NCBI GenBank assembly: GCA_003527485.1
Contig: DPXI01000088.1
Span: 209,638-273,637 of the forward strand
Origin: Treponema sp.
GTDB lineage: Bacteria; Spirochaetota; Spirochaetia; Treponematales; Breznakiellaceae
Reading direction: 5' to 3'
Length of the DNA stretch: 64,000 bases
Both the position numbers and the translations under genes were made by a program. The notes under the pieces were generated by a model. The model saw nothing but the letters and a program-made list of their open reading frames with translations, had not been told where the DNA came from and did not search any database. Below, one piece after another: positions 33,073-64,000 of this stretch. Within the stretch, counting starts at the first letter, position 1, and each line of letters starts with the position of its first letter.

Positions 33073-33891
33073 TTAGCGGGCGGCCTTGAGTGCCTCTGCT
33101 GCGAGCGCGAGGAAGGGGGAAACGGCGATGGAAACGCCGGTCACCGCGTCGGTCTTGCCGTCGGCCTTGACGGCGATGGAGGCGGGGTCCTGGGCCTTGA
33201 CGAGGGCGGCTTCCGCTTTGGCGGTCTGGACGTCCCACTCGGACTGCGCTTTCCCGAATTTGACCATTCCGTATTTGCCGGTCACGGATTCCGTTATCTT
33301 GGACTTCTTCTTGGCGTCGCTGGAAATGCCGTTCCAGACGGCGGAAACGACGCGGCCGTTGACCACGGTCACGAGGACGGTATCCTTCCAGGTGGACTTG
33401 GCGTCGAAGGCGGCCTGCTGGGCGTAGAACCAGCCGTCCTTCTGATAACTGCCCTTGGCCACCGGGCCCGCGGCGACGGCCTTCTTGGCCAGATCGAAGA
33501 AGCCCTTCACGGTGATCGAGGCGCCTGAGATGGCGTCGGTCTTGCCGTCGGCCTTGATCTTGGAGAAGGCGAGATCCTGGCTGGAAACGAGGTACGCTTC
33601 CACCTTCGCGGCTTCCTCCCACCATTCGCCCTGGGACTTGCCGAATTTCTTCATGTTGTACTTTCCGGCCTTGTCGTAGGCCTTCTTGTCCGCGGCGCCC
33701 GCTATGTTGCTTACGCCGTTCCAGTCGGCGGCGGCGATCTTTCCGCCCTTGACCTCAAGGACGATCTGGTCCTTCCAGCCGCTGGAGGAGAATGCTTCTT
33801 CCTGGGCGAAATAGAGCCCGTCCTTCAGGGTCTGGGCGAACGCGGTCGCGGCGAACGCGACGAGTGCGACTGCGACGATTATTCTTTTCAT
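33073..33891 (-). CDS. Secreted lipoprotein with two tandem FMN-binding (FMN_bind) domains, PplA-like
   Basis: Signal peptide MKRIIVAVALVAFAATAFA. Two about 130-aa repeats carry KDG(L/W)Y… and flavinylation-type motifs DAISGASITVKGF and DAVTGVSIAVSPF. Confidence 0.65.
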   Translation of the reverse strand: MKRIIVAVALVAFAATAFAQTLKDGLYFAQEEAFSSSGWKDQIVLEVKGGKIAAADWNGVSNIAGAADKKAYDKAGKYNMKKFGKSQGEWWEEAAKVEAYLVSSQDLAFSKIKADGKTDAISGASITVKGFFDLAKKAVAAGPVAKGSYQKDGWFYAQQAAFDAKSTWKDTVLVTVVNGRVVSAVWNGISSDAKKKSKITESVTGKYGMVKFGKAQSEWDVQTAKAEAALVKAQDPASIAVKADGKTDAVTGVSIAVSPFLALAAEALKAAR

Positions 33892-33954
33892 CTCAAATGG
33901 CCTCCATGAATAGTGTGCGGGGAACATTATAATCAATAATCCTGACACCGGGAA

Positions 33955-34749
33955 TCACCCATAACTATGGAGCCCCGGAAGCAGGTAATTGACGCCGAAA
34001 AACGTGAACACGGTGCAGACGAATCCCACCACCGCGATGGCGGAAGCCAACGCGTCCTTCCGTTTCATCACGAGGCGGACGTGCAGGTAGGCGGTGTAGA
34101 CGAGCCAGGTCACCAGGGCCCAGGTCTCCTTGGGATCCCAGCTCCACCAATGTCCCCAGGCCCGTTCCGCCCAGATCGCCCCGAAGACCAGGGCGCCCGC
34201 GGTGAAGATGGGATAGCCGACGGCTATGGCCGCGTAGGTCACCCTGTCCAGGGCCAGCCGGCGGTCCGCGTCCCCGGAGAAAAGGAAGGCGAGGGAGGAG
34301 GCGAAGGAGACGACGAAGAAGGCTTCGCCGATAAAGGAAAAAGCGACATGGAGGGCCAGCCAGGACGAATTGAGCGCGGGTATCGGCGGCAGGGCGTCCT
34401 TGGGCAACAACGGAGAAGACGCGACGGCCAGAAGCGCCGCGGCGAAGAAGGTGGAGGCGAAGGCGACGAAGGGGGAGAAGGGAATGCGCCTCTGGAAGCG
34501 GTACAGGGCGACGACGAGGGCGACGACGGCGGCGTAGAAGACGAGAGATTCGAAGGTGCTCGTAAGCGCCGCGAAGCCGATCTCGAAGCTGCGCTGGAGG
34601 GAAAAACCGAAAAGGAGCAGGGCGGCGGCGGCGAGCAGCCAGACGGAGACCGGGTCGCCTTTCCCGCCGGGGCGGAAGAGCCGGATGGCCTGCAGAGCCG
34701 CGGCCGCGAGCAGGAGGATGAAAGCGATCGCGGGGATTGCCGGTATCAT
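33955..34749 (-). CDS. ccsA: Cytochrome c-type biogenesis protein CcsA/ResC (System II)
   Basis: WGHWWSWDPKETWAL tryptophan-rich WWD haem-handling motif, multiple TM helices. Confidence 0.85.
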   Translation of the reverse strand: MIPAIPAIAFILLLAAAALQAIRLFRPGGKGDPVSVWLLAAAALLLFGFSLQRSFEIGFAALTSTFESLVFYAAVVALVVALYRFQRRIPFSPFVAFASTFFAAALLAVASSPLLPKDALPPIPALNSSWLALHVAFSFIGEAFFVVSFASSLAFLFSGDADRRLALDRVTYAAIAVGYPIFTAGALVFGAIWAERAWGHWWSWDPKETWALVTWLVYTAYLHVRLVMKRKDALASAIAVVGFVCTVFTFFGVNYLLPGLHSYG

Positions 34750-35699
34750 ACGGTCTCCTTGATTTTTCGGGCGAAGGTCACCGCGGTGCCGAGGGCCACC
34801 AGGATGAGGCCGGCGAGGACGAACTTGTATCCGGGATCGACCACCGCCTGCAGACCGGTGACGGCCTCGGCGCTCAGCGTGGCGCGCCAGGGGCCTGCGT
34901 CGACGCCGGCGCCGGAGCCTGCGGCGAGGCCGGCGCCATCGGCCGTCAGGCGGATCACCTCGTCGCTGTTCGATACCCGGAGCAAAACCGACCCCGATTC
35001 TTCGATCGTCATGAAGAAGACGGAAACTCCGCCTTCTTCATAGGTTTCGCCGCGCGCCAGCCGGTGCGTTACGCCGTCGGGCCCGATGAGCCGAACCGTA
35101 GGTTCCGAGCCGTAAGTGGCTTGGTACAACGTCAATCCGGGGCGGCGCAGGGGAGTGTTGACCCGGATTCCGCGATCCGCGACCAGGATTTTTCCCTCTT
35201 TGGCGATATCCACCACGCTGATCCAGTCCTTGGGTCTGCCGTCATCGTAACGAACGTCAGTAAAGCTTTTGAGCGTAAGGGTTTCCCCTCCTGGAAGCTC
35301 CACTCCGTCCCCGACTTTCAGGGAAACCGCCCCTTCCTTCCTTTCGGAATAGCTCACGAGCGATCCGACGACAAGCACGAGCAGCCCGACATGCAGGATA
35401 TCCGGACCATGCCGCCGCGGACCCTTTTTCCTCAGTTCGCGCGCGAGCCTTGAGACCGTGCAAGCCGACAGATTGAAGAAAAAGGCGAAGGCGGGAAACA
35501 GGAAAAGAAGCGAGGAGAAATAATGGGAAAGCCCGGTCTCAGTCACCAGCAGGGCGACGATCCGCGGATACAACTGAAAGTATCGCTCCGCGTCCAATCC
35601 CTGGGGAATCAGGGTCGCAAGCGTGGAAAAGGAGGCCAAGGCGATGATCAAGCCGATCGCAAGCCGGACGGATTTGAGGAAACGCCAGAAACTATTCAC
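34746..35699 (-). CDS. ccsB: Cytochrome c biogenesis protein CcsB/ResB (System II)
   Basis: 317 aa, ResB-like topology. Overlaps the ccsA start. Confidence 0.7.
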   Translation of the reverse strand: MNSFWRFLKSVRLAIGLIIALASFSTLATLIPQGLDAERYFQLYPRIVALLVTETGLSHYFSSLLFLFPAFAFFFNLSACTVSRLARELRKKGPRRHGPDILHVGLLVLVVGSLVSYSERKEGAVSLKVGDGVELPGGETLTLKSFTDVRYDDGRPKDWISVVDIAKEGKILVADRGIRVNTPLRRPGLTLYQATYGSEPTVRLIGPDGVTHRLARGETYEEGGVSVFFMTIEESGSVLLRVSNSDEVIRLTADGAGLAAGSGAGVDAGPWRATLSAEAVTGLQAVVDPGYKFVLAGLILVALGTAVTFARKIKETV

Positions 35700-35821
35700 T
35701 GATGCTCCTGCGGTCCGTCCGCGCGGACGGGTTATCAGCGCAGTCTATTACCCGTCCGAGAACGCTGTCAAGATATCGGCATATCGAATACCTTATATAA
35801 ATAATAATATATCTATATGAC

Positions 35822-35850
35822 TTTACATATTCAAGGAGGGGCCGTATAGT
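35822..35850 (+). promoter_or_regulatory. Sigma70-like promoter for the cytochrome c/rhodanese operon: TTTACA-17 nt-TATAGT
   Basis: Seen directly within a very AT-rich block (35770-35850). The following 5'UTR of about 120 nt contains GC palindromes, including CGCGTCG-T-CGACGCG. Confidence 0.5.
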
Positions 35851-35978
35851 GCTTTCAGGTTGCTTTCGCGCTGCGCGTCGTCGACGCGGAGCGCGGCCGT
35901 TTTCCGCGCCTGCGCCCGGGAATTCGGTCGACGGGGTTTTTCCCGCCAAGCCGCCGCGAATGAATCAGGAGGTGCCCC

Positions 35979-37202
35979 ATGAAAAAGGCGACCTTCGGGT
36001 CCTCGCTCATCCTCATCGCCCTTGTCGGGACCGGTTCCGCGTACGCCGCGGCTTCGTCCTGCCTTGATTGCCACGGCAATATCGAGACGATGAAGTCGAT
36101 GGTGAGCATGCCCGTAGCCAGTTCCGCCGAGGGGGAAGGGTGAGCGGGTGCCCCTCCCCCGGTCCGGGCGGATTATTACATGGGATACGTGGTGGATACG
36201 AAAATGGCCGCGGCGGATCCCCACTTCCAGCAGGGCTGCGTCGCCTGCCATGAAGGAAACGCTTCAGGAAAGGACAAAGCCCAGTCCCACGCGGGGCTCG
36301 TGAAACGGCCGTCCGACGATCCGTCGGTCTGCGGGACCTGCCACGAGGGCATCGCCAAGACCTATACTCTGTCCCTCCATTACTCGAACGCCGGCATGAA
36401 GAACGGCATCTCCCCGCGCTTCTCAAAGGATGAGAAACATACTTACGACACGGCCGTCTTCGAACAGTCCTGCCGGAGTTGCCACGCATCCTGCGGCGAT
36501 TGCCACGTGAAGAGTCCGGTGATTTCGGGGGTCAATACCGGCCTCATGGACGGTCACGCCTTCGTGAGAAAAGACGAATCCAAGACCTGCGCCCTCTGCC
36601 ACGGCGGGCGGGTATACCCGGAGTTCACCGGCGATTACGGCGGCACTCCGGACGTCCATTACCGCAACGGCATGACCTGCCTCGACTGCCACACGTCCAC
36701 CCAGATGCACGGGAACGGAATGTCGTACGAAGGTCGCCGGGATGTCGAAGACAAGCCTTCCTGCCTTGCCTGCCATCCGCAGGGATCGGAAAAAACCGAA
36801 GAAGCCAAGTCGGCCCATGGCGACCATGGCGAAAAGGTGTCCTGTTCGGCCTGCCATACGGCGACCGGCTACCGCCAGTGCTCATCCTGCCACCTCGGAG
36901 AAGGAGCCGCCGCGAGCCCTGCGCTCATCCTCGGCTTGAATCCGCGCAAGGAAGGCCAACTCACCACGCTGCGCCTCATCCCCACGGTGCGGTCCACCTT
37001 CGAAAAGGCCGGCATCAAGCAGATGAATTTCGATTCCGTGCCGAATCTATGGGACACGGTTCCCCACAATGTGAAGAAGAGGACCGAAAGGACCCGGGAC
37101 TGCGCGCTTTGCCATTACGAGCAGGAGAATTACCTGACGGAGGAATCGCTTCCGAAGGACGGTTCGAGCGCCAACCTCAAGTTGATTCCCGCGGGCCATT
37201 AA
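35979..37202 (+). CDS. Multihaem (11 CxxCH) c-type cytochrome interrupted by a single in-frame UGA at 36141-36143. Annotate with a recoding or pseudogene caveat.
   Basis: ATG 35979 with AGGAGG RBS. MKKATFGSSLILIALVGTGSAYA signal peptide, then CLDCH, then TGA. It continues in the same frame (AGAPPPVRADYY, MGYVVD…) through 10 more CxxCH motifs. The downstream portion alone lacks any signal peptide. Confidence 0.6.
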
Positions 37203-37225
37203 GACCTGCCGGAAAGGAGTATTTT

Positions 37226-38104
37226 ATGAAGAGAATGTTGATCGCGGCGCTTGCCCTGTGCTTCGCCGCCCCCCTGTTCGCCCGCGACGTCGAGGCGATC
37301 GTGACCGCCGATTGGCTGGAGGCCAACCTCTCGAACCCCAAGGTCGTGGTCGTCGACGTACGCAAGGTGGAAGAGTACAAGGCCGCCCACATCAAGGGCG
37401 CGGTGAACGTGCTCGGGAGCAGCCTTTACGTGCCCGCGGCAGGACTCAGCAACGAGCTGCCGAACGCCGACGACCTCTCCGACATCCTCGCCGACGCGGG
37501 CATCGACGCGTCCTCGATAGTGGTGGTGGTGGAAAGCGACAGCGCCGCGCGCTTCGCCTGGGCCACCCGCGTGGCATGGACCCTCGCCTGGGCTGGCCTG
37601 GACAACGTGGCCGTGCTCTCCGGCGGCCAGAAAGCCTGGACGGACGCGAAAAAGCCTGTGGACGCCGACAAGGTCGCGAAAGCCGCCACCAAGTTCTCCG
37701 TCAAACCGCGCAACGAATACCTGGCGCTCCTCGGCGATGTGCTGAAAAGCAAGGGGCAGGTGATCGACAACCGTACCTACGACACCTACTTCGGCATCGT
37801 CAAGCAGGGTTTCGTCGCCCAGGCCGGCCATTACCCGAACGCGATCGCCCTGCCCTCCTCATGGATCGTCGGCGCCGACGGCCTCGTGAAGTCCCAGACG
37901 GAGCTCGCCAAGATGCCCGTGCTCCTCGGCCTTGATCCCTCGGTCGACACCATCACCTACTGCGATTCCGGCGTGCTCGCCACCGGCTGGTGGTGGATAC
38001 TCCACGAGCAGCTGGGTTGGAAAAACGTAAAAAGCTACGACGGCTCGTCCCAGGACCTGACCAAGGATCCCTCGGTCAAGTACGTGACCCACGTCTGGAA
38101 GTAG
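37226..38104 (+). CDS. Periplasmic tandem-rhodanese sulfurtransferase (thiosulfate/polysulfide sulfurtransferase-like)
   Basis: 292 aa from ATG 37226 (GGAAAGGAG RBS). Signal peptide MKRMLIAALALCFAAPLFA. Two rhodanese domains. Active-site Cys in …ITYCDSGVLATGWW…. Confidence 0.75.
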   Translation: MKRMLIAALALCFAAPLFARDVEAIVTADWLEANLSNPKVVVVDVRKVEEYKAAHIKGAVNVLGSSLYVPAAGLSNELPNADDLSDILADAGIDASSIVVVVESDSAARFAWATRVAWTLAWAGLDNVAVLSGGQKAWTDAKKPVDADKVAKAATKFSVKPRNEYLALLGDVLKSKGQVIDNRTYDTYFGIVKQGFVAQAGHYPNAIALPSSWIVGADGLVKSQTELAKMPVLLGLDPSVDTITYCDSGVLATGWWWILHEQLGWKNVKSYDGSSQDLTKDPSVKYVTHVWK

Positions 38105-38275: not shown

Positions 38276-38710
38276 TCAAAAATACGCAGGAAGCTCGAAA
38301 GCGTCGAAGGCCCGGAAGTCGTCGGGGTTTGCCGTAAGTAGCGCGGTGACCCCCGCAGACCGGTACGCCGCAGCCATATGAGTATCGATGATCCGTTTCC
38401 TTCCCAATTTGAACGCGACCGTCCATATCCGGGCTTGTTCGAAGGACTCCGCGGATTGATGCACGATCCGTACCCGTCTTTGGCGCATCCAGAAATGGGA
38501 GCGGACCAAGGCTTCGGGAAAGGAAAGCGGCGAATCGAAACGCTTCGGATCCGTAACGATGTGCATGAATTCCAGAAAGACATGGTCATAAACGGCAAAT
38601 AAATTATCCGAATCGCGACGCCAGTCCTCAAAATAGCGAAGCGCCCCGGCGTGACGGGGCGACTCGATCACCTCGAGATCCACCAGGAAGCTGGTATCAA
38701 TACCGGTCAT
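38276..38710 (-). CDS. vapC: PIN-domain toxin VapC
   Basis: MTGIDTSFLVDLEV… PIN acidic residues. Overlaps the antitoxin gene by 14 nt. Confidence 0.75.
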   Translation of the reverse strand: MTGIDTSFLVDLEVIESPRHAGALRYFEDWRRDSDNLFAVYDHVFLEFMHIVTDPKRFDSPLSFPEALVRSHFWMRQRRVRIVHQSAESFEQARIWTVAFKLGRKRIIDTHMAAAYRSAGVTALLTANPDDFRAFDAFELPAYF

Positions 38711-38948
38711 CGAGCATCTCGTCCCGGAAATCCCCCAAGGCCCAATCCTTTTTTATCCCCCCCAGGGAGATCGGTTTCCAATTCTCCAATGTGCTTGCGC
38801 CCAGGATACGATTCCTCGCGTAGTCTTCCATCGCTTCTCGGATGAGCTCCGATGCTGTCCTATCGGAACCAAGCGCCGTCTCCTTGAAAAGCTGGTAAAG
38901 CGGTTCTGATACATTGATAGTAACAGGCTTCATATGGTTATCATACAT
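38697..38948 (-). CDS. vapB: VapB-type antitoxin (RHH/CopG-like)
   Basis: 83 aa, …TASELIREAMEDYA… ribbon-helix-helix. Immediately upstream of and overlapping vapC. Confidence 0.65.
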   Translation of the reverse strand: MYDNHMKPVTINVSEPLYQLFKETALGSDRTASELIREAMEDYARNRILGASTLENWKPISLGGIKKDWALGDFRDEMLDDRY

Positions 38949-39897: not shown

Positions 39898-40986
39898 CTA
39901 GCCGACGACGCGGATGCGGGCGCCGTCGGCGGCGCCGCGTCCCGCGCGCGGGACGCATTCGCCGATCACCGCGAATTCCACGCCGCTGGCCGCAAGGGCG
40001 CCGAGGGCTGCTCCGAGTCCGGCGGGCGGGACCGCGGCCAACAGGCCGCCGGAGGTTTCCGGCGCGAAAAGGAGGGTCCTGAAGGCTTCGTCGGCGCAGG
40101 GAGCGCCTTCGCCTTCGAATGCGACCTTTCCCGCATACGCGTGCCGGTTACGGGCGGCGCCGCCGGGCACAAAGCCCCCGCGGACGCAGTCGGCCGCGCC
40201 CGCGATCATGGGAACGGCCGAAGCGCGCACGAGGAGATCGATCCCGCTCTTGTCAGCGAGCTCAAGGGCGTGGCCCGCGAAGCCGAAGCCGGTGACGTCG
40301 GTCGCGCTGAGGCAGTCCGCCGCCAGGAAGGCGCGCGCGGCGTCGCGGTTGAGCAGTTTCATGGAAGCCACCGCCGCCGCGAGGACCCCGGCGGGGGCGG
40401 CGCGCGACTTTGCGGCCGTAGTGATGATCCCCGTCCCCAGCGCTTTGGTCAGCACCAGGACGTCTCCGGCCCGCGCGCCGGTCTTCAGCAGGAGCCTGTC
40501 CGGCTTGCCGATGCCGAGCACGGCCAGGCCGAACTTCGGCTCGGCGTCCATGATGGTGTGGCCGCCGGCGACCGCGCACCCGGCCTCGGCGGACTTCTCG
40601 GCGCCTCCGCGGATGATCTCGGCGATGACCGAGGGATCCAGGTCGGAAGGAAAGGCGGCGATATTCAGGGCCATGATCGGCTCGCCGCCCGTAGCGTAGA
40701 CATCGGAGAGCGCGTTTGCCGCGGCGATGGCGCCGAAATCGTAGGGATCATCCACCACGGGGGTGAAGAAGTCCGTCGTGAAAATCAAGGCCGTATCGTC
40801 GTTCAGGCGGTAGACGGCGGCGTCGTCGCCTTCGGCCAGCCCGACCAAAAGGTCGGCGCGGCGCTCGGGAGGAACAAAGCCTGACAGGGGACGCAGGACC
40901 TGCGCCAGGGCCTCAGGGCCCATTTTTGCCGCTCACCCCGCCGCGGAGCAGAGCGACGTCAGCCGAACGATGTCGTCCTTGGTCAT
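39898..40986 (-). CDS. selD: Selenide, water dikinase (selenophosphate synthetase) containing selenocysteine. In-frame UGA at 40933-40935.
   Basis: Manual translation from ATG 40986 (AAGGAG RBS) gives MTKDDIVRLTSLCSAAG-U-AAKMGPEALAQ…, which aligns with E. coli LTQYSHGAG-C-GCK. The downstream region has the AIR-synthase-like fold. A GGGCCCUGAGGCCC hairpin starts 12 nt after the UGA. The ORF track lists only 39898..40923. Confidence 0.85.
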
Positions 40987-41043: not shown

Positions 41044-42000
41044 CTACGCTTCGCAATCCTGCAGGGATAGCCTGAGCGCTTCGGCATCGAAGTCCTTCCC
41101 GATGAAGATCATCGCGCTCAGCCGTTCCTCTCCGTTTTTCCAGGGCTTGGCCGCCAGCAGGGGGCGGCCGCCGACGTACTGCAGGATGTACTTGCTTTCC
41201 TCGGTCCGCGGGTCGGAAAAGCGCAGGAAACCCTTGGCCCGCACGACGGAACGCGGCAGGACGTCCAGGAAGGCGCTGAAACGCTCCAGGTCCAGAGGCT
41301 TCTCCGTCTTGTGGAAATAGCTCTCCACATGGGCGTGCCTGCCGCCGTGCCCGCTGCAGTACCCGCCTTCGCCGAGCTGCCCGTTCTCCAGGGCAGCCAA
41401 GTCCTCATGGTCGTAGCGGGCGCCCTCCGTCACGAGTGAAGTCGGAAAATCGGCGTCAAGCGACAGGATGCGCGCGTCCCTTTTCCGGCTCAGGATGAAT
41501 TTCCTCACACGCGCGGCCGCTTCGGGTCCGGCGAGCTCCAATTTATTCAGCAGGATGAAATCCGCGAATTCGAGCTGCTGGACAGCGATGGCAAAATCCT
41601 CGATCGAATCCAGGTAATTCAGCGTATCCACCACGCAGACGATCGAATCGAAATGGAGCCGCCCGTCGAGGTCGTTGAGAATGAAGGCCGCGGCGATGGG
41701 CACCGGATCGGAGAGGCCCGACGCTTCCAGCAGGATATGGCCGATATTTTTCCCCACCGCCAGCAAGCCTTCTATCGTTTTCACCAGGTCGTCCCGCACC
41801 ACGCAGCACATGCAGCCGTTCGGCAATTCCGCGATTTCGTTGTCCCCCGCCTCCACGATCTTGCTTTCCAGCTTCACGTCGCCGAATTCGTTCAGCACGA
41901 GGCCGAAGCGGATCTCCGGATGCTCGGCGACGATGCGGCTGATGAAGGTGCTCTTGCCGGCGCCCAGGAAACCGCAAATCAGGGTGACGGGAATCTTCAT
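41044..42000 (-). CDS. COG0523 (CobW/ZigA/YeiR-like) metallochaperone GTPase
   Basis: GFLGAGKST P-loop, GCMCC metal-binding motif, C-terminal CobW_C domain. The listed ORF extends to 42102 through the 9-nt tandem repeats. Confidence 0.8.
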   Translation of the reverse strand: MKIPVTLICGFLGAGKSTFISRIVAEHPEIRFGLVLNEFGDVKLESKIVEAGDNEIAELPNGCMCCVVRDDLVKTIEGLLAVGKNIGHILLEASGLSDPVPIAAAFILNDLDGRLHFDSIVCVVDTLNYLDSIEDFAIAVQQLEFADFILLNKLELAGPEAAARVRKFILSRKRDARILSLDADFPTSLVTEGARYDHEDLAALENGQLGEGGYCSGHGGRHAHVESYFHKTEKPLDLERFSAFLDVLPRSVVRAKGFLRFSDPRTEESKYILQYVGGRPLLAAKPWKNGEERLSAMIFIGKDFDAEALRLSLQDCEA

Positions 42001-42139
42001 AAGCGGCAGTATAAGGCCCGGCTCCGAAAACGGGCAAGGATAAACGGAATCCTGCCGGACCTGCCGGTCCTGCCGGTCCTGCCGGTACGCGCCGGAGGCC
42101 AAGCTTGACGGTCCTCCCGCCCTCGCCTAGTATTGGCGA

Positions 42140-42229
42140 GGAAGCGGATGGGGTCCGGCGGCCCCCGCGGTCTTCAAAACCGTTGGCCGCGATTCATCGC
42201 GGCGGCAGGATCGACACCTGCCCCTTCCG
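42140..42229 (+). tRNA. selC: tRNA-Sec (selC), anticodon UCA
   Basis: GGAAGCGGATGGGGTCCGG…GGTCTTCAAAACCG…long variable arm…GCAGGATCGACACCTGCCCCTTCCG. This is collinear with E. coli selC, with anticodon loop CUUCAAA (UCA at 42174-42176) and T-loop GGATCGACACC. The long acceptor stem has one C-C mismatch. Confidence 0.75.
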
Positions 42230-42247
42230 TATTTCCCCGGAGGCCCC

Positions 42248-43648
42248 ATGGAACAAGAGGACGTCAGGTCGCGTCTGCCCCAAGTCGAGCGCCTGCTCGG
42301 TCTTCCGGAGGTGTCCGCCTACTTCGAACGCATTTCCCGACCGCTCGCCGCCCGCGCGGTTTCCCGCGTCCTCGCGGCGGAACGCCAGAGGCTGACGGAA
42401 GAGCCGGACAGCGGAATCGGGGAAGACGAACTGCTCGCCGCGGTGATCGCCGCCCTGGACGAACTCGATCGAAGGCGGATACGCAAGGTCGTCAACGGTA
42501 CGGGCATCGTGCTGCACACCAACCTGGGGCGCTCACCTCTATCCCCGGCCGCCTGGAAAGACGCCGCCGAGGCTGTGGAAGGGTATTCCAACCTGGAGTT
42601 CGAGGTCGAAGCCGGAAAGCGGGGCAGGCGCGGGGGACTCTCATCCGAACTCCTGCGCGCCTTGACGGGAGCCGAGGACGCCCTGGTCGTCAACAACAAC
42701 GCCGCGGCGATGGTGCTCGCCCTCGCCTGCTTCGCGTCGGGCAAGGACGTGCTCGTGTCCCGCGGAGAGGCCGTGCAAATCGGCGGAGGCTTCCGAGTGC
42801 CGGACATACTGGCGATGTCGGGCGCGCGCCTGAAGGAAGTCGGGACCACGAACGTGACGACCGAAGAAGACTACCTGAACGCGATAGACGGCGAAACGGC
42901 AGTGGCGCTCTCCGTCCACGCTTCCAATTTCGCCATCCGCGGCTTCACGCGCAAGCCCGATCTCAGCCTGCTTTCCGCCGCCCTTCCGAAGAACGTGATC
43001 CTGATCGCCGACCAGGGCTCGGGCTGCTGCGAAGCGGGCGTGCCCGCGGAAACGCCCGTGCGCAATTACCTCCGCGACGGGGTCCGTCTGGTCTGCTTTT
43101 CCTGCGACAAGATACTCGGCGGTCCCCAGGCAGGGGCGATCGTGGGCGATGCCGCGCTCATCGCCCGGCTCTCCCGGCATCCCCTGATGCGCGCCTTCCG
43201 TCCCGGCAAGGTGACCCTCGCGGTCCTGGAGCGCTGCCTGGTCGCCCGCTTGGGGGGAAATCCCGGCAACGGCGACGAGCCTCCCGCCGGATCTCCCGTC
43301 GAGCGCGCGCTCCGCAGGACTTCGACCGAAGGCATCCATGAGCTCAAGGCGCTCGGCCGGCGCGTCATCAGGCGGCTCCCGAAAGCCTCCGCGATCCTGG
43401 TCGAATCGCGCGCGGCGATAGGCGGCGGGAGTTCCCCCGACGAGACCCTCCCCTCCTTCGCCCTGGTCCTGAAGGGCGCGCGGGGTGCTGAATCCCTGCT
43501 GGCCGCCTTGCGCCTCGGAAGGGTCCCGCTCATCGGGAGAGTGGAATCCAGCTCCGTGATCGTCGACCTGCTGACCCTCGCCGACGAGGACGACAAGCTC
43601 GTCTCGAACCTCATCCTTGAAGCCCTGGAAAAAGAGGGCGGTTCTTGA
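42248..43648 (+). CDS. selA: L-seryl-tRNA(Sec) selenium transferase
   Basis: 466 aa. …[11 protein letters not shown]… and the PLP-lysine motif [13 protein letters not shown]. Confidence 0.9.
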
Positions 43649-45636
43649 TAGTCGTCGCGCTCGCGGGCCACGTCGACCACGGGAAGACGGCCCTCGTCCG
43701 CGCGCTCACGGGAATCGACACCGACCGGCTGCCGGAGGAAAAGGCGCGGGGCATGACGACCGACCTCGGCTTCGCCGCCCTGGATCTGCCGCCGGGCGAC
43801 GGAGCTTCCGGCTCCACTCGGCCTGCCCGCAGGGTAGGCCTCGTAGACGTACCCGGCCACGAGCGCTACATCCGCAACATGGCCGCGGGAGCCTGGGGAG
43901 CCGACCTCTGCTTCCTGTGCACGGCCGCGGATGACGGCTGGATGGATCAGACCGAAAACCATTGCCGCCTCCTTTCGGCCTTCGGCCTTCCGCGCGCGAT
44001 CGTGATAGTGACCAAGATCGACTTGGTCGAAAGGAAACGCGCACAAGAAGTCGGCGCCGATGCGCGCCGGCGGGCGGCCATCATCCTCGGGGAAGCGGCC
44101 ATCGCGGAAGGCTTCATCGCGACGAGCGCGCTGACGGGCGAAGGCCTGGCCGAAACCATGGAGCTGGCCGCGCGTGAATGCGACGCCATCCTGACCGCCC
44201 GCGCCTCCGCGGGACGCGCCTCCGCGGGACGCGCCTCCGCGGAACGGGCCGCTCCTGAACGGGCCGGCGCGGGAGCGGGCGCCTGGCTCTTCGTCGACCG
44301 CGTCTTCTCCAAGAAAGGCGCGGGCCTGGTGGTCTGCGGCACCCTGCGCGGCGGCGCCGTCCGAGTCGAGGACGAGCTTGTCCTCCGCCCCGCGGGCGAG
44401 ACGCTCCGGGTCAAGGGAGCCGAAAGCCTCGGCGCGGCCGTCGGACAGGCGGAGCCGGGAGGCCGGGTAGCCTTCAACACGACCAAGCCGAAAGTGGAGA
44501 TTCGCCGCGGCGACCTGCTTTGCGCTCCGGGAGCCGCGACCTTGCAGGCGTCCGAGTTCATCGTGCGCGTGGAGGAAACCGGGCGATCTATCGAGCGCCG
44601 CGAAAAGGCCGACCGCGCGCTGACCAAGGGCGGAGAGGCCGAACTCGTCGCCGGCAGCGCGCGGCGGACCGTCCGGCTGGAACCATTCGGCAAGGGCGGC
44701 TTCTTCAGGCTCATCTGCGACGAAAAGCTGGCCGTACCGCGCGGGATCCGGGCCGCCCTCGTCCGCTCTGGAGGGGCTGAGCTCCTCGGCGCCGTTACCT
44801 TCGTCCATGCGGGTGACTGCGGAAAAGCGGGCCGCAAACGGGCGCGTGAAACTGCGGCCGCCGTCGCGACCGCCGTCGCGGCCGCCGATGCGGGCGCGGC
44901 CGCCGCCGTAGCCACCGGCGTGGCCGCGGACGGACGTTTCGCGGCCCTCGCGGTGGCGACCGCCATCGACGGGGCGACTCCCCTCGATCGGGAGGCGCTG
45001 GGCTATCTGCCCGACCCCGAGGCGCTTGAGGAGTGCGGCTTCATCGTCATCGTCGGTCATCTGGTGGACAAGCGGGCAGCCAAACCGACCCGCCCCGCCG
45101 GCGGCCCCGGGACCATGAACCCGAAGACGAACGGGAACGGTAACCGGAAGCAGGGAGACGCGACTTTCAGGCTCCCGCAGCCTGTAGCGCTCGCCCTGGC
45201 CGAAAAAGCGGCGGCAGCCACCAAAATCCGCGTTCCGGAACGGACCGGACCTTCTCCCGCTGCGCTGGACGCCGAACGCGCGCTGCGCGCCGCGGGGATC
45301 GCGGGCATCGAGCCGAACGCCGCGCCGGAGCGGGGAAAGCCGCCGCCCCCCCAACGCAAGCTCCTGGAGGAACTCTGCTCCGCAAAGCTCGCCGTGCCCC
45401 TGGACCGCGACCTCTTCTGGCATACGGAAACCTACGACCGCGCCGCGGCCTCCGTGCTTTCGGGCCTGGAACCCGGCGGGCGCCTCACCATCGCCGACGC
45501 CAAGCAGCGCGCCGGCCTTTCCCGGAAATACGCCATCCCCTTCCTGAACCGCCTTGAACGCGACGGCTGGGTCAAGCGGGACGGGGAAACCCGCGTCGTG
45601 CAGAAACGATGGACGGCGGACGGTGGAGATGAATAA
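43645..45636 (+). CDS. selB: Selenocysteine-specific elongation factor
   Basis: [43 protein letters not shown]…[15 protein letters not shown]… matches E. coli SelB closely. Long C-terminal winged-helix extension. Confidence 0.9.
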
Positions 45637-57767: not shown

Positions 57768-58007
57768 TTACCCCTTCGATTTATCTTCCAGCAACCTGTT
57801 CACGAACTTCATTTCCCTTTCCAGCTGGCCGATCTTGTCTTCCTTTTCGACTATCGACGATTCCAAAATCCGAACCCTCTTCTCAAGGTCCTCGAGCATG
57901 GCCGCCGAGGCTGCGCCTTTCAGTTTCGACCTCTTCCCCAGATAGTCGAAGCCCGAGGCGATCAAGGTCATCAGCGTCAGCCCCGCGACGATCGTCAATG
58001 TCAGACC
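57768..58007 (-). CDS. PspB-like envelope-stress membrane protein. Probably starts at the internal Met MGLTLTIV.
   Basis: Single TM followed by LEDLEKRVRILESSIVEKEDKIGQLERE, which is PspB-like. Confidence 0.4.
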   Translation of the reverse strand, partial: GLTLTIVAGLTLMTLIASGFDYLGKRSKLKGAASAAMLEDLEKRVRILESSIVEKEDKIGQLEREMKFVNRLLEDKSKG

Positions 58008-58159
58008 CATGAAATTCCTCCCCGTTGCCGGCCTTCCGACATCCAACCCGAGTCCGGCTCCTACGGCCGGGACTTCCTGTCGAGTATAGTACGTTTTCCC
58101 GAACTTGAGGTCATGCGTTTTGCCGTAAAACCGCGCTACGCGACAGCCTGCACCGATCG

Positions 58160-58807
58160 TCAAGCTCCTGATGCGCGTACGTATCGCAAATGCGTTGCCG
58201 ATGGCGTCGCAAGAACCCCGTCGATCCGAAAACCGGGCACCGTATCGGAGATATTTTCAAAAAGCCGCCGGCCGCTTCCGAAAATGACCGGCGCGAGCGA
58301 GATTTCAAGTTCATCCACCACGCCCATATTCAGGTATTGTTGAATCACGTCCGCACCACCGGCGATACGGATGTCCCTTTCGCCCGCCGAGACGCGCGCT
58401 TGCTCAAGCGCCGCCTCGATACCGCTATCCACAAAAAAGAACGTAGTGCCGCCCGGCCGTACCCAAGGCTCCCTCTTCTCATGCGTCAACACGTACACCG
58501 GCGTATGGAACGGCGCTTCCTCCGGCCATCCCAGCTCTCCCCCTTCAAACATCCGCTTCCCCATGATATTCGCTCCGATACGCTCGGTGGTCCGCTTGAG
58601 CATCTCGTTGACCGGGCCGGTTTCCCCTCCGGGCCCCAACTTGAGATTGTCCCTGAAGTGTTGCTGATTGATAACCCAGCCCATCATCGCTTCCCACTTG
58701 GCGGCCCAGTTCTTATAGCCCGGGTTATTCCAGTTCTTGAGAGTCATCCCTTCCGGAGCCAGGTAGCCGTCAAGGCTCAGACCTACGTTTACGAACACTT
58801 TCGCCAT
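58160..58807 (-). CDS. Dihydrofolate reductase-family (RibD C-terminal domain) protein
   Basis: MAKVFVNVGLSLDGYLAPEG… RibD_C/YwjB-like. Confidence 0.75.
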   Translation of the reverse strand: MAKVFVNVGLSLDGYLAPEGMTLKNWNNPGYKNWAAKWEAMMGWVINQQHFRDNLKLGPGGETGPVNEMLKRTTERIGANIMGKRMFEGGELGWPEEAPFHTPVYVLTHEKREPWVRPGGTTFFFVDSGIEAALEQARVSAGERDIRIAGGADVIQQYLNMGVVDELEISLAPVIFGSGRRLFENISDTVPGFRIDGVLATPSATHLRYVRASGA

Positions 58808-59045
58808 ATCGTCCTCCTGATCGGCGGCAGGACCTCCGATCAGGATTCAATATACAAAATATTGCATATTTCCCAAAGTTCCGATAACCCTATACTTGGC
58901 TTGTGAAGGGCAGAACAATACAAGTCCTGTTTCTTCCCCGCCCGGTGGGTTTGTGAAACGTAGAGACAGGCAGCGGTTATGCGCAGAAAAGCATTAGTTG
59001 ATCATGCCTGGTACTTGTTGCGTAGTCCTACGTCCAGATCGTACA

Positions 59046-59444
59046 TTAGCTGATCCAATCGGCTTTTCCCTCCGGTTCTCCGGGGCATCTCCAGCAATAT
59101 GTCGCAGGTCCCAATAAGTGCTTGGTTTGTTGGACATCCCTCAATGGATGCGTAAAGGCCGTTGCCGCAGCCTGGCTCGCGGCTTGAGCAGCGGCGGAAG
59201 CAGCGAAATGCTTTATTTCGCGCGCTGCCCGAAACGCATCCATCGCCAGCACACGCAATTTCGCGTTTCGTTTTCCATTGTCGGAGAAGACGCGTATGCC
59301 GGCGATCGCATCGCGCGGACGAGCATCGCCTTCATAATATTCCTCATAGATCGGCAATGCCCTTTCGGCACAATCGGCCGCCCATTTTCCAAGAAGTCGC
59401 AACGACTCGATTTTGAGCTCAAAATACTCTTTTTGTTTTCCCAT
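59046..59444 (-). CDS. Small all-alpha protein, paralog of 61237..61773. Tentatively immunity-protein-like.
   Basis: …LGKWAADCAERALPIYEE…RPRDAIAGIRVF…AAREIKHFAASAAAQAASQAAATAF… shares an ordered motif set with the downstream paralog. In the low-GC island. Confidence 0.5.
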   Translation of the reverse strand: MGKQKEYFELKIESLRLLGKWAADCAERALPIYEEYYEGDARPRDAIAGIRVFSDNGKRNAKLRVLAMDAFRAAREIKHFAASAAAQAASQAAATAFTHPLRDVQQTKHLLGPATYCWRCPGEPEGKADWIS

Positions 59445-60237
59445 ATGCTGTCATCCTTTCAATCAGGCATTTACTCGCTCTACTTTCCGGATTCGTGAAG
59501 TCCATATGGGAACCGCCTTCGATTTTTATCAATTCGATTTCATCGCCGGCTGCTTTGGAAGCGGACGCGTAGGCCTCGGATTCCTCGACCGGAACGGAGG
59601 CGTCATCGGAACCATGTATCACCAATCGCGCCATGGCCATGGGAATCAGCGAAATTGGTGATACGCGTTGATACTTATCCATCGCTTCCGATGGCGGCGT
59701 CTGATTCATAAGCGCAAGCACGTACCCGGATCTCTCTTGATCTCCGTAGCACTTGAGTAGGTCGGTAACAGGAGCAAGACCGATCAGCGCAGTCGGCGTA
59801 AGTTCCAGAGTGTTCACGGCAACCCCGCTGCCCTTGTTACCCAACCACAATGCGAGGTGGCCGCCTGCGGAATGGCCGGCAACGTAGAGCGGCTTGAGAT
59901 TCATTTGGTCATACTTCTTCTTCAGCGTCGTAAGGTAGTTGACGGCATCTACCGCATCGTCGAAAGTGCCCGGATATCCGCCTCCCTTCCAGCCGGTCCT
60001 TCTGTACTCAATGTTCCAGACAGTAAAACCGTTCGCAGCAATCGCTTCCGCAAGTTCAGAAAGCTGGGTGCGATCGTAGGGCATTTTCCAGAAGCCACCG
60101 TGAAACAGACAAACCGTTCCGTTTTCAGGATGCTTGGGAAGGTACAAGTCGCCTTTTTGGTACTGGTCCTTTCCGTAACTTTCCGTATGGAAATCACATT
60201 CCAGGTGATGGGCTTCTTTCATAACAATATCTCCCAA
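59419..60237 (-). CDS. Alpha/beta hydrolase (esterase/formamidase-like)
   Basis: HGGFW oxyanion region and GHSAGGHLAL nucleophile elbow. Confidence 0.75.
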   Translation of the reverse strand: MGDIVMKEAHHLECDFHTESYGKDQYQKGDLYLPKHPENGTVCLFHGGFWKMPYDRTQLSELAEAIAANGFTVWNIEYRRTGWKGGGYPGTFDDAVDAVNYLTTLKKKYDQMNLKPLYVAGHSAGGHLALWLGNKGSGVAVNTLELTPTALIGLAPVTDLLKCYGDQERSGYVLALMNQTPPSEAMDKYQRVSPISLIPMAMARLVIHGSDDASVPVEESEAYASASKAAGDEIELIKIEGGSHMDFTNPESRASKCLIERMTAYGKTKRVF

Positions 60238-60338
60238 TTCATCGATACGCTGAGCCGTAAGTTGAATTTATGAAACGGGGTACGTTTTGCTCTGAAAACC
60301 GCATTTCCGCTGCATAAGGCTCGTTGTTCAGGCTGATC

Positions 60339-61136
60339 CTAATGTCCGCCAGCTGTTTTTTCTCCGGAAATTCGAGGCACTACATACTCCCGCAGGAAAC
60401 GACTGAGCGTATCTTCGGAAAAGTGCCCTCCCCCATCTCGTTTTATGAATTCGGAACCCGGTATCAGCGATGCGGTTAGGCTGGCTGTCCTGAACGGTAC
60501 TTGCTCGTCATCCAGGCTGTGCTCATATAGTACTTTGCCATGAATCTCCGCGAGGGAAAAGCCCCAATCCTCCGCGCGAATCTTCAAATCCAGTGCGGGT
60601 CCATAGAAATCATTCTTCCTGGAGTCGATTACATCATTCCTTCCCGCTCTGGAGGGGTCGCTCATCCACCCGAAAATCTCGCTCGCGACTTTCTGGAAAT
60701 GCGCAACCGATTTTCCCTGCTCCAGAGGATAGGGCCAAAGAGCGGCTACGTGGGGATTGGTCAAAAGCGGCGTTCCGCTAAAAATGAAGGCACTCTTGGT
60801 ACGTTCCGGCAACCGGTGAGAGACTGACAAGGCGTAGGGTGCGCCGGATGAAGTTCCCAGAACGGAAAAATCTGATATTCCCAAATAGTCCAGAAGTTCA
60901 GCGGCTATATCGCCATATTCGCTTATGTCCTTCAACTCATAACAGCTACTATCACCGTATCCTGGTCGAGCTATCGAAACGACACAAATGTTTCGGTCAA
61001 CCATATTTCGGAATAGTTCGGCATCCTTGATACTCGCGATCATTCCATGCTGGACCAGCAATACTGGATTACGGCTATTTCCCAATATGGAATACGAGAG
61101 CAGCAGGTTTTTCATTGATTTGAATGATTTGATCAT
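60339..61136 (-). CDS. Alpha/beta hydrolase fold protein
   Basis: …VLGTSSGAPYAL… GxSxG and abhydrolase topology. Confidence 0.7.
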   Translation of the reverse strand: MIKSFKSMKNLLLSYSILGNSRNPVLLVQHGMIASIKDAELFRNMVDRNICVVSIARPGYGDSSCYELKDISEYGDIAAELLDYLGISDFSVLGTSSGAPYALSVSHRLPERTKSAFIFSGTPLLTNPHVAALWPYPLEQGKSVAHFQKVASEIFGWMSDPSRAGRNDVIDSRKNDFYGPALDLKIRAEDWGFSLAEIHGKVLYEHSLDDEQVPFRTASLTASLIPGSEFIKRDGGGHFSEDTLSRFLREYVVPRISGEKTAGGH

Positions 61137-61236
61137 ATCCCCTACCTCTTTCTGGTCCGTTCAACAACGAATTTAAATATGGAACGATTTATCATTCCAA
61201 TCAGTTCATGCTTGATGCAGGAATGCGGATCATCTC

Positions 61237-61773
61237 TTACGCTTGGAAAACATTCCAACATATCTCGTTCCGGTTTTTCTGATCATCCATAACCAATTCC
61301 TTGATCTTTTCCGGCAACTGGTCCCGTTGCCATTCGCATTCTTTACGACCATTCTCACTTTTCTCGCTTTCTTCACCAGCTGCCATTACCGCCTTTATTG
61401 CATATGCCGCGGCGCCCAGTTCATGAGCCGCTACATGGGCTACTACAGCTGCCTGTCCCGCTGACAGGGCAGCGAATTTTGGCGCTCCAGCCAATTCACG
61501 AGCCGCGGCATTTGAATCATAAGCTCCTTTTTTTGATTCGGTCAATGATATTTCTTCACGAGACCAAGCCCGTGCTAATTCAATGGCTTTGCGAGGTCGT
61601 TCGTCCCCTGGTCGCTCATTTTCAAAATAATGAAGAACATGTTCAGCGCATTGCGCCGCCCAAATCGCCAACAAATAGTGATCCTTGTCAGCTAAAGTTC
61701 CGCCTCGCCTGATTGTGATAAATCTTGAATCCCTGATTTTTGGCAGAATCACAAGGCTCTCCATAATAAACAA
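61237..61773 (-). CDS. Small all-alpha protein, paralog of 59046..59444, immunity-protein-like
   Basis: …LAIWAAQCAEHVLHYFENERPGDERPRKAIELARAW… and …AARELAGAPKFAALSAGQAAVVAHVAAHELGAAAYAIKA…. Confidence 0.5.
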   Translation of the reverse strand: MFIMESLVILPKIRDSRFITIRRGGTLADKDHYLLAIWAAQCAEHVLHYFENERPGDERPRKAIELARAWSREEISLTESKKGAYDSNAAARELAGAPKFAALSAGQAAVVAHVAAHELGAAAYAIKAVMAAGEESEKSENGRKECEWQRDQLPEKIKELVMDDQKNRNEICWNVFQA

Positions 61774-61924
61774 TGCGAGCTTTCACGAAAGGGACTTGAA
61801 TACCCGATATTTCCCGTCATCCAGCATTTTCTGATCTGCGCCTCACTTTCCGCTAAGCGGATTTGCGCGGTTTTCTCGTCAAGAACACAACGACTGCACA
61901 AACCATGATAAAGGGCAAGTCAGA

Positions 61925-62785
61925 CTATATAGTTTCCGGCTTTCCTGAATCACTCCCTATTGCTTCATTTTTAAATTCAGGATGATGCTTTTTCATGCAA
62001 TCAGGACATATTCCATGACTAAACTCGGCTTTAGAATGCTCTTCTATGTATAATTCGAGAATCTGCCATTGTTTTTTATCATCCCGTATTTTCTTGCAAT
62101 ACGAACATATCGGCAAAAGACCTTCTAGTTTGCTTACCTTTTCCTCGCTCGCTTCAGCCCTAATTCTTATTCGATCCACAACCATCGCTACCATTCCAAA
62201 TGCCGCAAGTACATGAAAGCCTGCCAATATTCCAAATTGCAATTCACTTGATTTTACAATTTTCCATATGGCCGTAAACAATATATAGCTTCCCCACAAT
62301 AACATACCAGAAGCCGCGAGATTCTTTCCTACAAGCTTTGCATTCTGTTTTTGGGTAAATATCATTATTGCGGCAGATATGAATATTATCGATCTAAATA
62401 GACGCAGCAAAAATATTCCCGACTGAAGGTCCGCTTTCAGCATTGCAATAGAAAAAAGCCAAAACACCAGACCTGAAATCAATACAAGTATTACACGCTT
62501 ATTCCATTTATTTCCGAAAAAGGAGTAGGCTCCATATACCAAGGCAGCAAATCCCAATATATGGAAGACTTCGCCAATAATATATAACTGCCATAACAGT
62601 AGCGGAATAACATTTGACCAAAAAAGGAATCCGATGCCATTCAGGGCAAAGCTAATAAGCCATATCGATATAGCCGATTCTTCTTTATCCACATTACGCA
62701 AGAATGCAAACCCTACGCAAATGCAAGCGAATATTGCGAAAAGCGCTAAATTGCTTGAGTAATTTTGGCTCAAATATGCATTCAT
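61925..62785 (-). CDS. 7-TM membrane sensor with a C-terminal Cys-rich domain (CxxC…H…HGICPDC)
   Basis: Seven hydrophobic helices. C-terminus LPICSYCKKIRDDKKQWQILELYIEEHSKAEFSHGICPDCMKK, which is typical of 7TMR-type sensor C-terminal zinc modules. Confidence 0.55.
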   Translation of the reverse strand: MNAYLSQNYSSNLALFAIFACICVGFAFLRNVDKEESAISIWLISFALNGIGFLFWSNVIPLLLWQLYIIGEVFHILGFAALVYGAYSFFGNKWNKRVILVLISGLVFWLFSIAMLKADLQSGIFLLRLFRSIIFISAAIMIFTQKQNAKLVGKNLAASGMLLWGSYILFTAIWKIVKSSELQFGILAGFHVLAAFGMVAMVVDRIRIRAEASEEKVSKLEGLLPICSYCKKIRDDKKQWQILELYIEEHSKAEFSHGICPDCMKKHHPEFKNEAIGSDSGKPETI

Positions 62786-63624
62786 GCGGGTTTTCCTTTT
62801 ATCATCAGTGCAGATGTATTCATATTGTCTTTACCTGCGCGCGTAATATCAAACTAGCGCAGAATTAACCTGCGTTATGTGTGGCGCGGTTGCTGCGCAA
62901 GCAAGAACCTTGACGCCCAAATATGTCAGCTGAATAGGCCGGAGGAATTTCACCTCCAGCACCTCACAGAACCGCACGTGACTCTCTCAAATCATACAGC
63001 TCTTCATATTCCGCCAGTACGGCTTTGTTTGATCCACCAACTCCTCCTGTTTCCAGTTGACCGCTGGACCAGACCGAATATGTCAGCCCCTTCGCTACAT
63101 TCTCATTACAAGAACTTCATCACTATTATGAGCTGATCCGCTATCGTGCCGTGCTTTGATACTTTCCTGCTTGCGGGATCTCCGCTTTCAGCGTTCTCTT
63201 ACCATCACGACGACAGGTTCCCACGTTCCGCATCACCGCCAGTCTCAGGGGTCACACCGCCTCTATGCCGAAGACCACATACACGGTAATCAGGTTTCCC
63301 GTCTGCTGTCCAAGGCGTTTTAACATCCACCATTTTTGATCCTCATGTTCAACTTTTCGACACCTTATCGGCGGTTCAGTTTCGTTCGTCTCCTCAGGAC
63401 AACCTGACAGGATCATTCCTGCCTCTTCCGTCAACGTTCACCACCATGTCACTAGCCCACAGTAGCTTGTGGCGGTTTCAGACCTGCTCCTAAAAGCCGA
63501 TCCCGAGGGGCCAGTCTCTTATTGCATCGACTCCCTCATTAGTGATGCAGTTCCATCACCTCCTTCCTATTCAGAATATAAGCGCCATTTTCGTGGCACA
63601 CGTTGAACTGGATGATATGCACTT

Positions 63625-63996: not shown

Positions 63997-64000
63997 AAGT

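Follow-up and report, generated by a model that had tools for sequence, protein, structure and literature searches.

How does a spirochaete produce a multihaem c-type cytochrome from a gene that is interrupted by an in-frame TGA codon, and what reaction might such a protein serve? The question is raised by a stretch of 64,000 nucleotides from Treponema sp. (contig DPXI01000088.1; the whole stretch is referred to here as the window), in which genes for a cytochrome and a rhodanese stand divergent from genes for a cytochrome c synthase and an FMN-binding-like protein. These four gene sets had been described in an earlier, sequence-only reading of the window, and their presence was confirmed by open reading frame (ORF) listing and domain scans. 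That reading missed the most important feature of the locus, which is the selenoprotein nature of the cytochrome together with an adjacent set of genes for selenocysteine (Sec) synthesis and insertion. Judged from sequence, the locus almost certainly encodes an 11-haem cytochrome that contains Sec, along with its cognate rhodanese and a dedicated CcsBA synthase, next to a Sec toolkit. One database match of 100% identity was found, a protein of the metagenome-assembled genome Treponema sp. RIFOXYC1_FULL_61_9.

The cytochrome gene (35979-37202, + strand) would encode a periplasmic protein of 407 aa in which Sec is residue 55. Its ATG at 35979 is preceded by AGGAGG (35967-35972, +). Translation of the frame revealed a signal peptide, MKKATFGSSLILIALVGTGSAYA, followed by A, and a mature protein that starts with AASSCLDCH and runs to EGEG, at which point the TGA is met (36141-36143, +; motif EGEG-U-AGAPPPVR if read as Sec). 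The sequence AGAPPPVRADYY stands directly after this TGA and continues into a ten-haem part. The uninterrupted ORF (36180-37202) contains 10 CXXCH motifs and is without a signal peptide; the 54-codon piece upstream of the TGA holds the sole signal peptide and an 11th CXXCH (CLDCH). An ORF scan of the whole window found CXXCH in these two cytochrome fragments only, with 11 motifs in total. Because the 11th motif lies upstream of the TGA, the figure of 11 haems given by the sequence-only reading holds only if the codon is decoded, and the uninterrupted ORF alone would supply 10. The position of the sole signal peptide has a further consequence, namely that a haem domain made without read-through would not be exportable for haem attachment.

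Homologues were surveyed by a scan of GTDB species representatives, and 80 loci, of at least 523 relatives, were analysed. Together with the window, these provide 81 cases (77 loci plus L020, L023, L064 and L038), and a TGA was present at the same site in 81/81, with protein sequence conserved on both sides. The residues around the UGA follow the motif (E/A/V)G-U-AG(A/P)PP(P/S)V(R/K), and conservation extends to the signal peptide and the first CXXCH. Carriers of the UGA-containing gene were found in Spirochaetota, Desulfobacterota (including Geobacter sp. OR-1, Syntrophus, Smithella and Syntrophorhabdus), Nitrospirota, Bacillota and Deferrimicrobia. All public gene callers treat the TGA as a true stop, which would imply a split or decaying gene with a 340-aa cytochrome as its sole product, if any product arises; that the hairpin downstream of the TGA, described below, is not unusually stable when folded alone is in keeping with such a view. 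Set against it are the identical placement of the TGA and the purifying selection on both sides of it in 81/81 loci from four phyla, the adjacent Sec machinery and the existence of homologues with Cys. Moreover, a 340-aa product without a signal peptide could not receive haem. A true stop is, on this evidence, extremely improbable.

The split is widespread in public records. Gene calls divide the cytochrome into products of 54 and 340 aa, and 117 of the best 120 database homologues begin after the UGA. Two of the three full-length entries show “W” at the Sec site, and in one of them (P0061) the “W” codon is TGA in the corresponding DNA. Four cytochrome homologues bear the Joint Genome Institute (JGI) label “thiosulfate sulfurtransferase.” At greater distance, homologues of 30-38% identity that share the 11-haem layout have Cys at the Sec-aligned site in a CGG/CPP context (P0129, P0150, P0176, P0155, P0132 and P0135 among others), and others have His or Tyr in this loop, for which the alignment is approximate. 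At the same level of identity, “W” was observed at or near the Sec-aligned position in P0161 (GEGWAG), P0136, P0141/P0234, P0162 and P0172; such entries may represent additional UGA/Sec subfamilies for which a different genetic code was used in translation. The predicted selenoprotein family is thus widespread, truncated by public annotation and nearly always paired with a periplasmic rhodanese. It is not among the entries of a 2026 selenoproteome review, and a search for literature on undecahaem or octahaem Sec proteins turned up only that review and the enzyme MccSep, considered below. Among NCBIfam models, for which matches at E<0.01 were considered, none came near its cutoff with the cytochrome, the best being ExtM (37 versus 800 bits) and ExtN (31 versus 200 bits).

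Immediately downstream of the TGA lies a hairpin that resembles a selenocysteine insertion sequence (SECIS) element (36155-36172, +; UCCCCC-GGUCC-GGG(C)GGA), the loop GGU of which begins 21 nt from the U of the UGA. Its consensus across the loci is UCC(C/G)CC-GGUnn(n)-GG(G)CGGA. In the alignment of the loci, 86-89% of hairpin cells were able to pair, as compared with 34-69% when the partners were slid. At third-codon sites of the stem, entropy was 0-0.35 bits in columns 18, 30 and 33 and 1.09 bits in column 21, where C or G alone occurs, bar one A. Third-codon sites beyond the stem reached 1.4-2.0 bits, and with those of the loop included the range was 1.1-2.0 bits, which amounts to free variation. 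Three results weaken the case for this element. Covariation is weak, with 3 compensatory cells only; RNAalifold returned -4.75 kcal/mol with no compensatory pairs; and the window hairpin folded alone was less stable than shuffled controls (z +2.19). A natural variant also counts against the overall proposal: in P0063, a close homologue, a genuine GCA Ala codon replaces the Sec codon with the hairpin sequence kept. Since compensatory changes are nearly absent and the fold is no more stable than shuffles, the assignment of the hairpin as a SECIS element is regarded as supported by conservation but not proven. An Rfam scan of the region searched gave tRNA-Sec as the sole match. In its locus (L084:1142-6172), P0063 is followed by an extra octahaem cytochrome of 665 aa, a different type of rhodanese of 246 aa and a multihaem protein of 318 aa.

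The genes required for Sec synthesis and insertion, selD, the tRNA-Sec gene, selA and selB, all lie within 8.5 kb downstream of the cytochrome module. The selenophosphate synthetase gene selD (39898-40986, -; Pfam AIRS/AIRS_C) carries a TGA of its own at 40933-40935 (motif SAAG-U-AAK), the translation reading MTKDDIVRLTSLCSAAG-U-AAKMGPEAL and onward, which marks the product as a Sec-type selenophosphate synthetase. Public selD calls begin after this TGA and give products of 336-341 aa. The tRNA-Sec gene (selC; 42139-42230, +), with anticodon UCA, was detected by ARAGORN and matched Rfam RF01852 with 63.9 bits (E 1.4e-11). It is followed by selA, encoding selenocysteine synthase (42248-43648, +; Pfam SelA), and selB, encoding the Sec-specific elongation factor (43645-45636, +; Pfam GTP_EFTU and WHD_3rd_SelB). 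In 10 other spirochaete loci, sel genes also adjoin the module. A CobW/G3E-family GTPase gene (41044-42102, -; cobW and CobW_C domains) was observed inside the sel block, between selD and the tRNA-Sec gene.

The cytochrome c synthase genes lie on the opposite strand. The ResB/CcsB-like subunit of the System II synthase (34746-35699, -) matched Pfam ResB (PF05140) with 85.4 bits, and the CcsA-like haem-handling subunit (33955-34749, -) matched Cytochrom_C_asm (PF01578) with 137.5 bits and contains a WWD motif, WGHWWSWD, which bears out the System II ccsB/ccsA pair of the sequence-only reading. Against TIGR03144, the CcsA-like protein scored 183.7, just below the cutoff of 187.6. Gene neighbourhoods were compared by searching 76 other cytochrome-bearing loci with the window proteins and by clustering all neighbouring ORFs all-against-all. 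ResB is divergent from the cytochrome in 37 of these loci and CcsA is adjacent in 32, all in Spirochaetota apart from weak hits to ResB in L068 and L080 (∼6-7 kb downstream) and to CcsA in L080 (∼7 kb). Adjacency of ccsBA restricted in this way to spirochaetes would fit hosts in which the cytochrome is perhaps the sole cytochrome c to be matured, and the closest relatives of CcsA are all spirochaetal. In the cultured spirochaete Breznakiella homolactica (L091, CP067089.2, 3107698-3122489), which has a similar CcsA, resB-ccsA was observed not with the module but beside a different, 177-aa c3-type cytochrome, with a 624-aa FAD_binding_2 flavoprotein and twin-arginine translocation (Tat) genes alongside; cytochrome c modules of more than one kind thus exist in spirochaetes.

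The tandem rhodanese gene (37226-38104, +) starts 23 nt past the cytochrome stop codon. Its product, predicted to be periplasmic, is 292 aa in length, has a signal peptide and matched Pfam Rhodanese with 94 bits in two stretches, in agreement with the two-domain periplasmic rhodanese proposed before. The active-site residue is Cys246 in the sequence CDSGV, and the Cys of this C-terminal CD[ST]G motif was invariant in 71/71 sequences. A rhodanese gene was found immediately 3′ of the cytochrome gene in 67/76 loci and in every phylum. In addition, an 11-haem cytochrome and two C-terminal rhodanese domains are naturally fused in P0151, a distant homologue of 715 aa with Tyr at the Sec-aligned site (GEG-Y-A). 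Cytochrome, System II synthase and rhodanese thus stand as a real module, as had been claimed, in a spirochaete whose neighbouring genes belong to sugar and amino acid metabolism.

Alignment of 69 full-length cytochrome sequences revealed 20 invariant His residues, 11 within CXXCH motifs and 9 elsewhere. M232 and K367 were also invariant, and K202 was conserved in 97%. All 22 invariant Cys residues are part of CXXCH motifs, and no Cys was found beyond them. Nine His residues outside CXXCH for 11 haems would leave two haems with no conserved distal His, so that there is scope for a catalytic haem. We infer from this pattern that the cytochrome may have a catalytic role beyond the carrying of electrons, and that the Sec residue, which follows haem 1 by 23 residues, is a possible ligand or neighbour of the catalytic haem. 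In its strongest form, this proposal would make U55 the distal axial ligand of one haem that lacks a conserved His, and the protein the first natural selenolate-ligated haem c. Such ligation is compatible both with the nine conserved distal His residues for 11 haems and with the occurrence of U, C, H or Y at the Sec-aligned site, all of which are able to ligate haem iron; it is put forward tentatively, as an unlikely arrangement overall.

The observations as a whole can be explained, with moderate confidence, by a model in which a Sec-containing 11-haem cytochrome and its rhodanese partner together reduce sulfane sulfur. The core of the system would be the two-gene operon for the Sec cytochrome and the periplasmic tandem rhodanese. 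Polysulfide, S0 or thiosulfate would supply sulfane sulfur to the rhodanese, which would bind it at Cys246 in the form of a persulfide and hand it on to the selenolate of U55. This residue would be located at one of the two haems that lack a conserved distal His, or would be an axial ligand of that haem. The other haems would funnel electrons such that the Se-S intermediate is reduced and sulfide is released. In a sugar-fermenting spirochaete, the system could provide an electron sink or a simple form of sulfur respiration. The specific proposal that rhodanese-borne sulfane sulfur (polysulfide, S0 or thiosulfate) is reduced as an electron sink draws on the gene fusion, synteny, fold similarity and analogy, and is given slightly better than an even chance. 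The link to sulfur compounds suggested by the sequence-only reading remains the best functional reading, given the rhodanese 3′ of the cytochrome in most loci, the fusion homologue and the analogies with MccSep and octahaem tetrathionate reductase (OTR).

In Geobacter sulfurreducens, MccSep (ExtKL, GSU2937-2936) was shown to be a Sec enzyme of the periplasm with five haems, which reduces polysulfide better than selenite (Sci Adv 2026, PMC13510729). Its Sec325 lies beside a His/Cys-ligated haem, the enzyme is essential for S0 respiration, and the ext cluster includes the rhodanese ExtH (PMC13510729). That a multihaem Sec enzyme from a rhodanese-containing cluster is a polysulfide reductase supports a role in sulfur chemistry for the window cytochrome. 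Both proteins are periplasmic multihaem c-type cytochromes with a single UGA-encoded Sec, from genes annotated as two ORFs and clustered with a rhodanese, and both occur in Desulfobacterota and Nitrospirota and in anoxic aquatic habitats; Se-S chemistry beside a haem is plausible in each. By contrast, MccSep has 5 haems rather than 11, its Sec is located in a C-terminal immunoglobulin-like domain (DGUP) rather than in an N-terminal GEGUAG at residue 55, and it needs the haem-ligating Cys239, whereas the window family has no Cys outside CXXCH. The window family is, furthermore, abundant in Spirochaetota.

Wolinella possesses a periplasmic rhodanese-type carrier, the single-domain protein Sud, and Psr, a membrane molybdoenzyme. 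The proposed system resembles Sud-Psr in that a periplasmic rhodanese-type carrier would hand sulfane sulfur to a terminal reductase, as the sequence-only reading had hinted. It differs in that the reductase would be a soluble haem/Sec protein instead of a membrane molybdoenzyme, and in that the window rhodanese is a tandem protein resembling mercaptopyruvate and thiosulfate sulfurtransferases (NF008557, 80 bits versus a cutoff of 250) and Sud has a single domain.

Several observations weigh against the reduction of sulfane sulfur by the cytochrome-rhodanese pair. MccSep is not a sequence homologue of the window cytochrome, to which NF040886 gave no hit; a PDB sequence search with the cytochrome (threshold E 0.005) likewise returned nothing significant. 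An AlphaFold2 (AF2) model, built on the natural Ala variant P0063, had a predicted local distance difference test (pLDDT) value of 71.9, with 80-95 in the C-terminal half but below 50 at residues 51-75, the Sec loop, such that Sec could not be placed relative to a haem from the model; Foldseek with this model returned no match. No electron-input component was conserved near the module when ORFs of the 76 loci were clustered, and no quinol dehydrogenase, Fe-S protein or porin recurred around them. The recurring neighbours were rhodanese, ResB and CcsA, with ars-type genes in a minority of loci and a histidine kinase in 11. In the window itself, Pfam searches for ApbE, a quinol dehydrogenase and other respiratory genes found none. 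Genes of ars type were found within 2-7 kb of the cytochrome in 19/76 loci from several clades and phyla, although none is present in the window; they hint at another substrate, either instead of sulfane sulfur or besides it. In favour of sulfur chemistry, on the other hand, stands DealDRAFT_1917 of Dethiobacter alkaliphilus, which, as judged by its description and not its sequence, seems to be a member of the family with a shortened gene model. This protein is listed as having no signal peptide and 10 CXXCH motifs, is followed by a rhodanese gene, was formerly misnamed “thiosulfate sulfurtransferase” and was significantly up on thiosulfate versus ferrihydrite (PMC10376724).

The induction of this candidate Dethiobacter member on thiosulfate is also in line with an enzyme similar to OTR or TsdA, which would turn over tetrathionate or thiosulfate, perhaps oxidatively, or else nitrogen oxides, and to which the rhodanese would be an accessory. 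OTR (PDB 1sp3; TIGR04315) was the sole significant structural match, it too is a periplasmic multihaem enzyme acting on sulfur compounds, and Sec-containing members are found in GenBank annotation; OTR-family Sec forms are also listed in the 2026 review, in which the cytochrome-type selenoproteins are ExtKL (NF040886), GSU2204 (NF041027) and OTR (TIGR04315). According to work cited in PMC13510729, TsdA and SoxAX carry out thiosulfate chemistry with a chalcogen-ligated haem, and the possible presence of a chalcogen (Cys there, Sec here) distal to a catalytic haem c engaged in S-S chemistry would be a shared feature. No homology to TsdA or SoxAX was detected, however, and Sec ligation in the window protein is hypothetical. 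The three models NF040886, NF041027 and TIGR04315 all failed to match the window cytochrome, TIGR04315 giving nothing at E<0.01. The window cytochrome has 11 haems and not 8, and no confidently modelled counterpart in OTR exists for its haem 1 or its N-terminal Sec loop. The tight and ancient coupling to a sulfane carrier, which includes the fusion, better fits delivery of persulfide or polysulfide. An OTR/TsdA-like reaction is accordingly considered rather improbable.

The ars-type genes raise the alternative that the cytochrome handles metalloids (selenite, tellurite or arsenic-sulfur species) in detoxification rather than in energy metabolism. The set comprises ArsR (HTH_5), ArsC of the low-molecular-weight phosphatase (LMWP) type, an ACR3/SBF transporter and the ArsP_1 permease, and the loci concerned include L012, L015, L018, L027, L028, L029, L035, L042, L050 and L059. 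The best, though weak, NCBIfam similarities are to the selenite/tellurite-operon proteins ExtM and ExtH; MccSep also reduces selenite, and Geobacter sp. OR-1 is among the carriers. Yet ars genes are absent beside the module in the window and from the vicinity of the module in about three quarters of the loci, and the scores for ExtM (37 bits) and ExtH (51 versus 200 bits) fall far below the cutoffs. Detoxification as the main function is therefore quite doubtful. A link of the ars proximity to arsenic-sulfur or metalloid chemistry is possible.

The remaining gene of the region encodes a secreted tandem FMN-binding-like protein (33073-33891, -; 272 aa) with two homologous domains, which matched PDB 2KZX (E 3.5e-32), an uncharacterised 131-aa protein with the motif DAISGAT. 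The gene is on the same strand as ccsA and begins 63 bp past it, and a terminator-like hairpin (33053-33026, -; 12 bp, 9 GC, with a T-run) stands directly after it. Upstream of resB, an AT-rich divergent control region (35700-35978) separates the two gene groups and contains promoter-like hexamers at 35771-35742 (-) and 35822-35850 (+); the scanned region held 7 promoter-like sites as compared with 1.1 expected. Hexamers on both strands and the terminator-like hairpin make two divergent transcription units plausible, consistent with the divergent operon layout reported before, and resB, ccsA and the FMN-binding-like gene are probably co-transcribed, as their arrangement suggests.

It was from this gene that the sequence-only reading had derived flavin-based extracellular electron transfer (EET), in which a flavinylated lipoprotein similar to Listeria PplA would work with the cytochrome and the rhodanese. 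Probable co-transcription up to a strong terminator that lies only beyond the FMN-binding-like gene, a fold of the 2KZX type, a flavinylation-type motif in domain 1 (DAISGASIT, with the canonical SGAS) and a weak similarity to PplA (NF041941, 37.2 bits with one domain matched) are in its favour, and the protein shares with PplA an extracytoplasmic location and two FMN-binding-type domains with an [S/T]G[A/V][S/T] motif. That the protein is secreted and has two such domains was upheld, with the qualification that domain 2 has TGVS (DAVTGVSIA) and that the Pfam FMN_bind score of 19.4 bits is below the cutoff of 22. The lipoprotein assignment failed. The signal peptide, MKRIIVAVALVAFAATAFA, followed by Q, contains no Cys, nor does any occur in the first 40 residues, and the protein is therefore not a lipoprotein; its PplA score is also far from the cutoff of 325. 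The wider context offers no better support for EET. A homologue stands beside the cytochrome in 0/76 loci, and neither ApbE nor Ndh2 or EetAB-like genes were found in the window. The protein belongs to a common spirochaete family of 273 aa, labelled “major membrane immunogen” by JGI, with three-domain forms in Sphaerochaeta, and its close homologues stand alone amid housekeeping genes in Gracilinema caldarium and other spirochaetes. Flavin-based EET is thus a very unlikely explanation. As judged from these neighbourhoods, the FMN-binding-like gene is a lineage-specific neighbour outside the conserved module, although the protein may serve some local purpose, such as the supply of electrons in the periplasm.

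The sequence-only reading had also taken the cluster to be acquired. In a neighbor-joining tree, calculated without support values, all spirochaete sequences bar L024 grouped in a single clade, with two Bacillota sequences as the sister group and those of Desulfobacterota and Nitrospirota elsewhere in the tree, and the module does not differ in GC content from its surroundings. On these grounds, the module appears to be an old component of a free-living spirochaete lineage and not a recent import. Other genes of the window encode glycosidases or are concerned with chemotaxis, lysine biosynthesis and sugar transport. Between the rhodanese gene and a metallo-β-lactamase (MBL)-fold gene, two small overlapping ORFs (38276-38948, -; 144 and 83 aa) have a toxin-antitoxin-like layout; they were first taken as a PIN/RHH toxin-antitoxin pair, an assignment that was dropped in the absence of any Pfam match. 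Toward the end of the window (∼58000-64000), GC content drops from ∼0.62 to 0.44-0.55 with strongly negative GC skew, and the ORFs include alpha/beta hydrolases; this segment may be foreign or differently evolving DNA.

The truncated annotation of the family has practical consequences for metagenomic surveys of sulfur and metal cycling, which misjudge its haem count, its localisation and its dependence on selenium. Until 2026, MccSep was the one characterised multihaem Sec enzyme. A second, unrelated family that combines cytochrome, Sec and rhodanese suggests that haem-selenium catalysis of S-S chemistry arose more than once, and that it is common in anoxic groundwater and sediment. For fermentative spirochaetes, the module provides a concrete candidate for the long-observed reduction of sulfur and thiosulfate, and may explain why such organisms keep ccsBA and the full Sec machinery in one island. 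If the haem were indeed ligated by Sec, the family would constitute a new and widespread group of undecahaem selenoenzymes, and would offer a compact, two-protein form of sulfur respiration to cytochrome-poor fermentative spirochaetes and many syntrophic Desulfobacterota.

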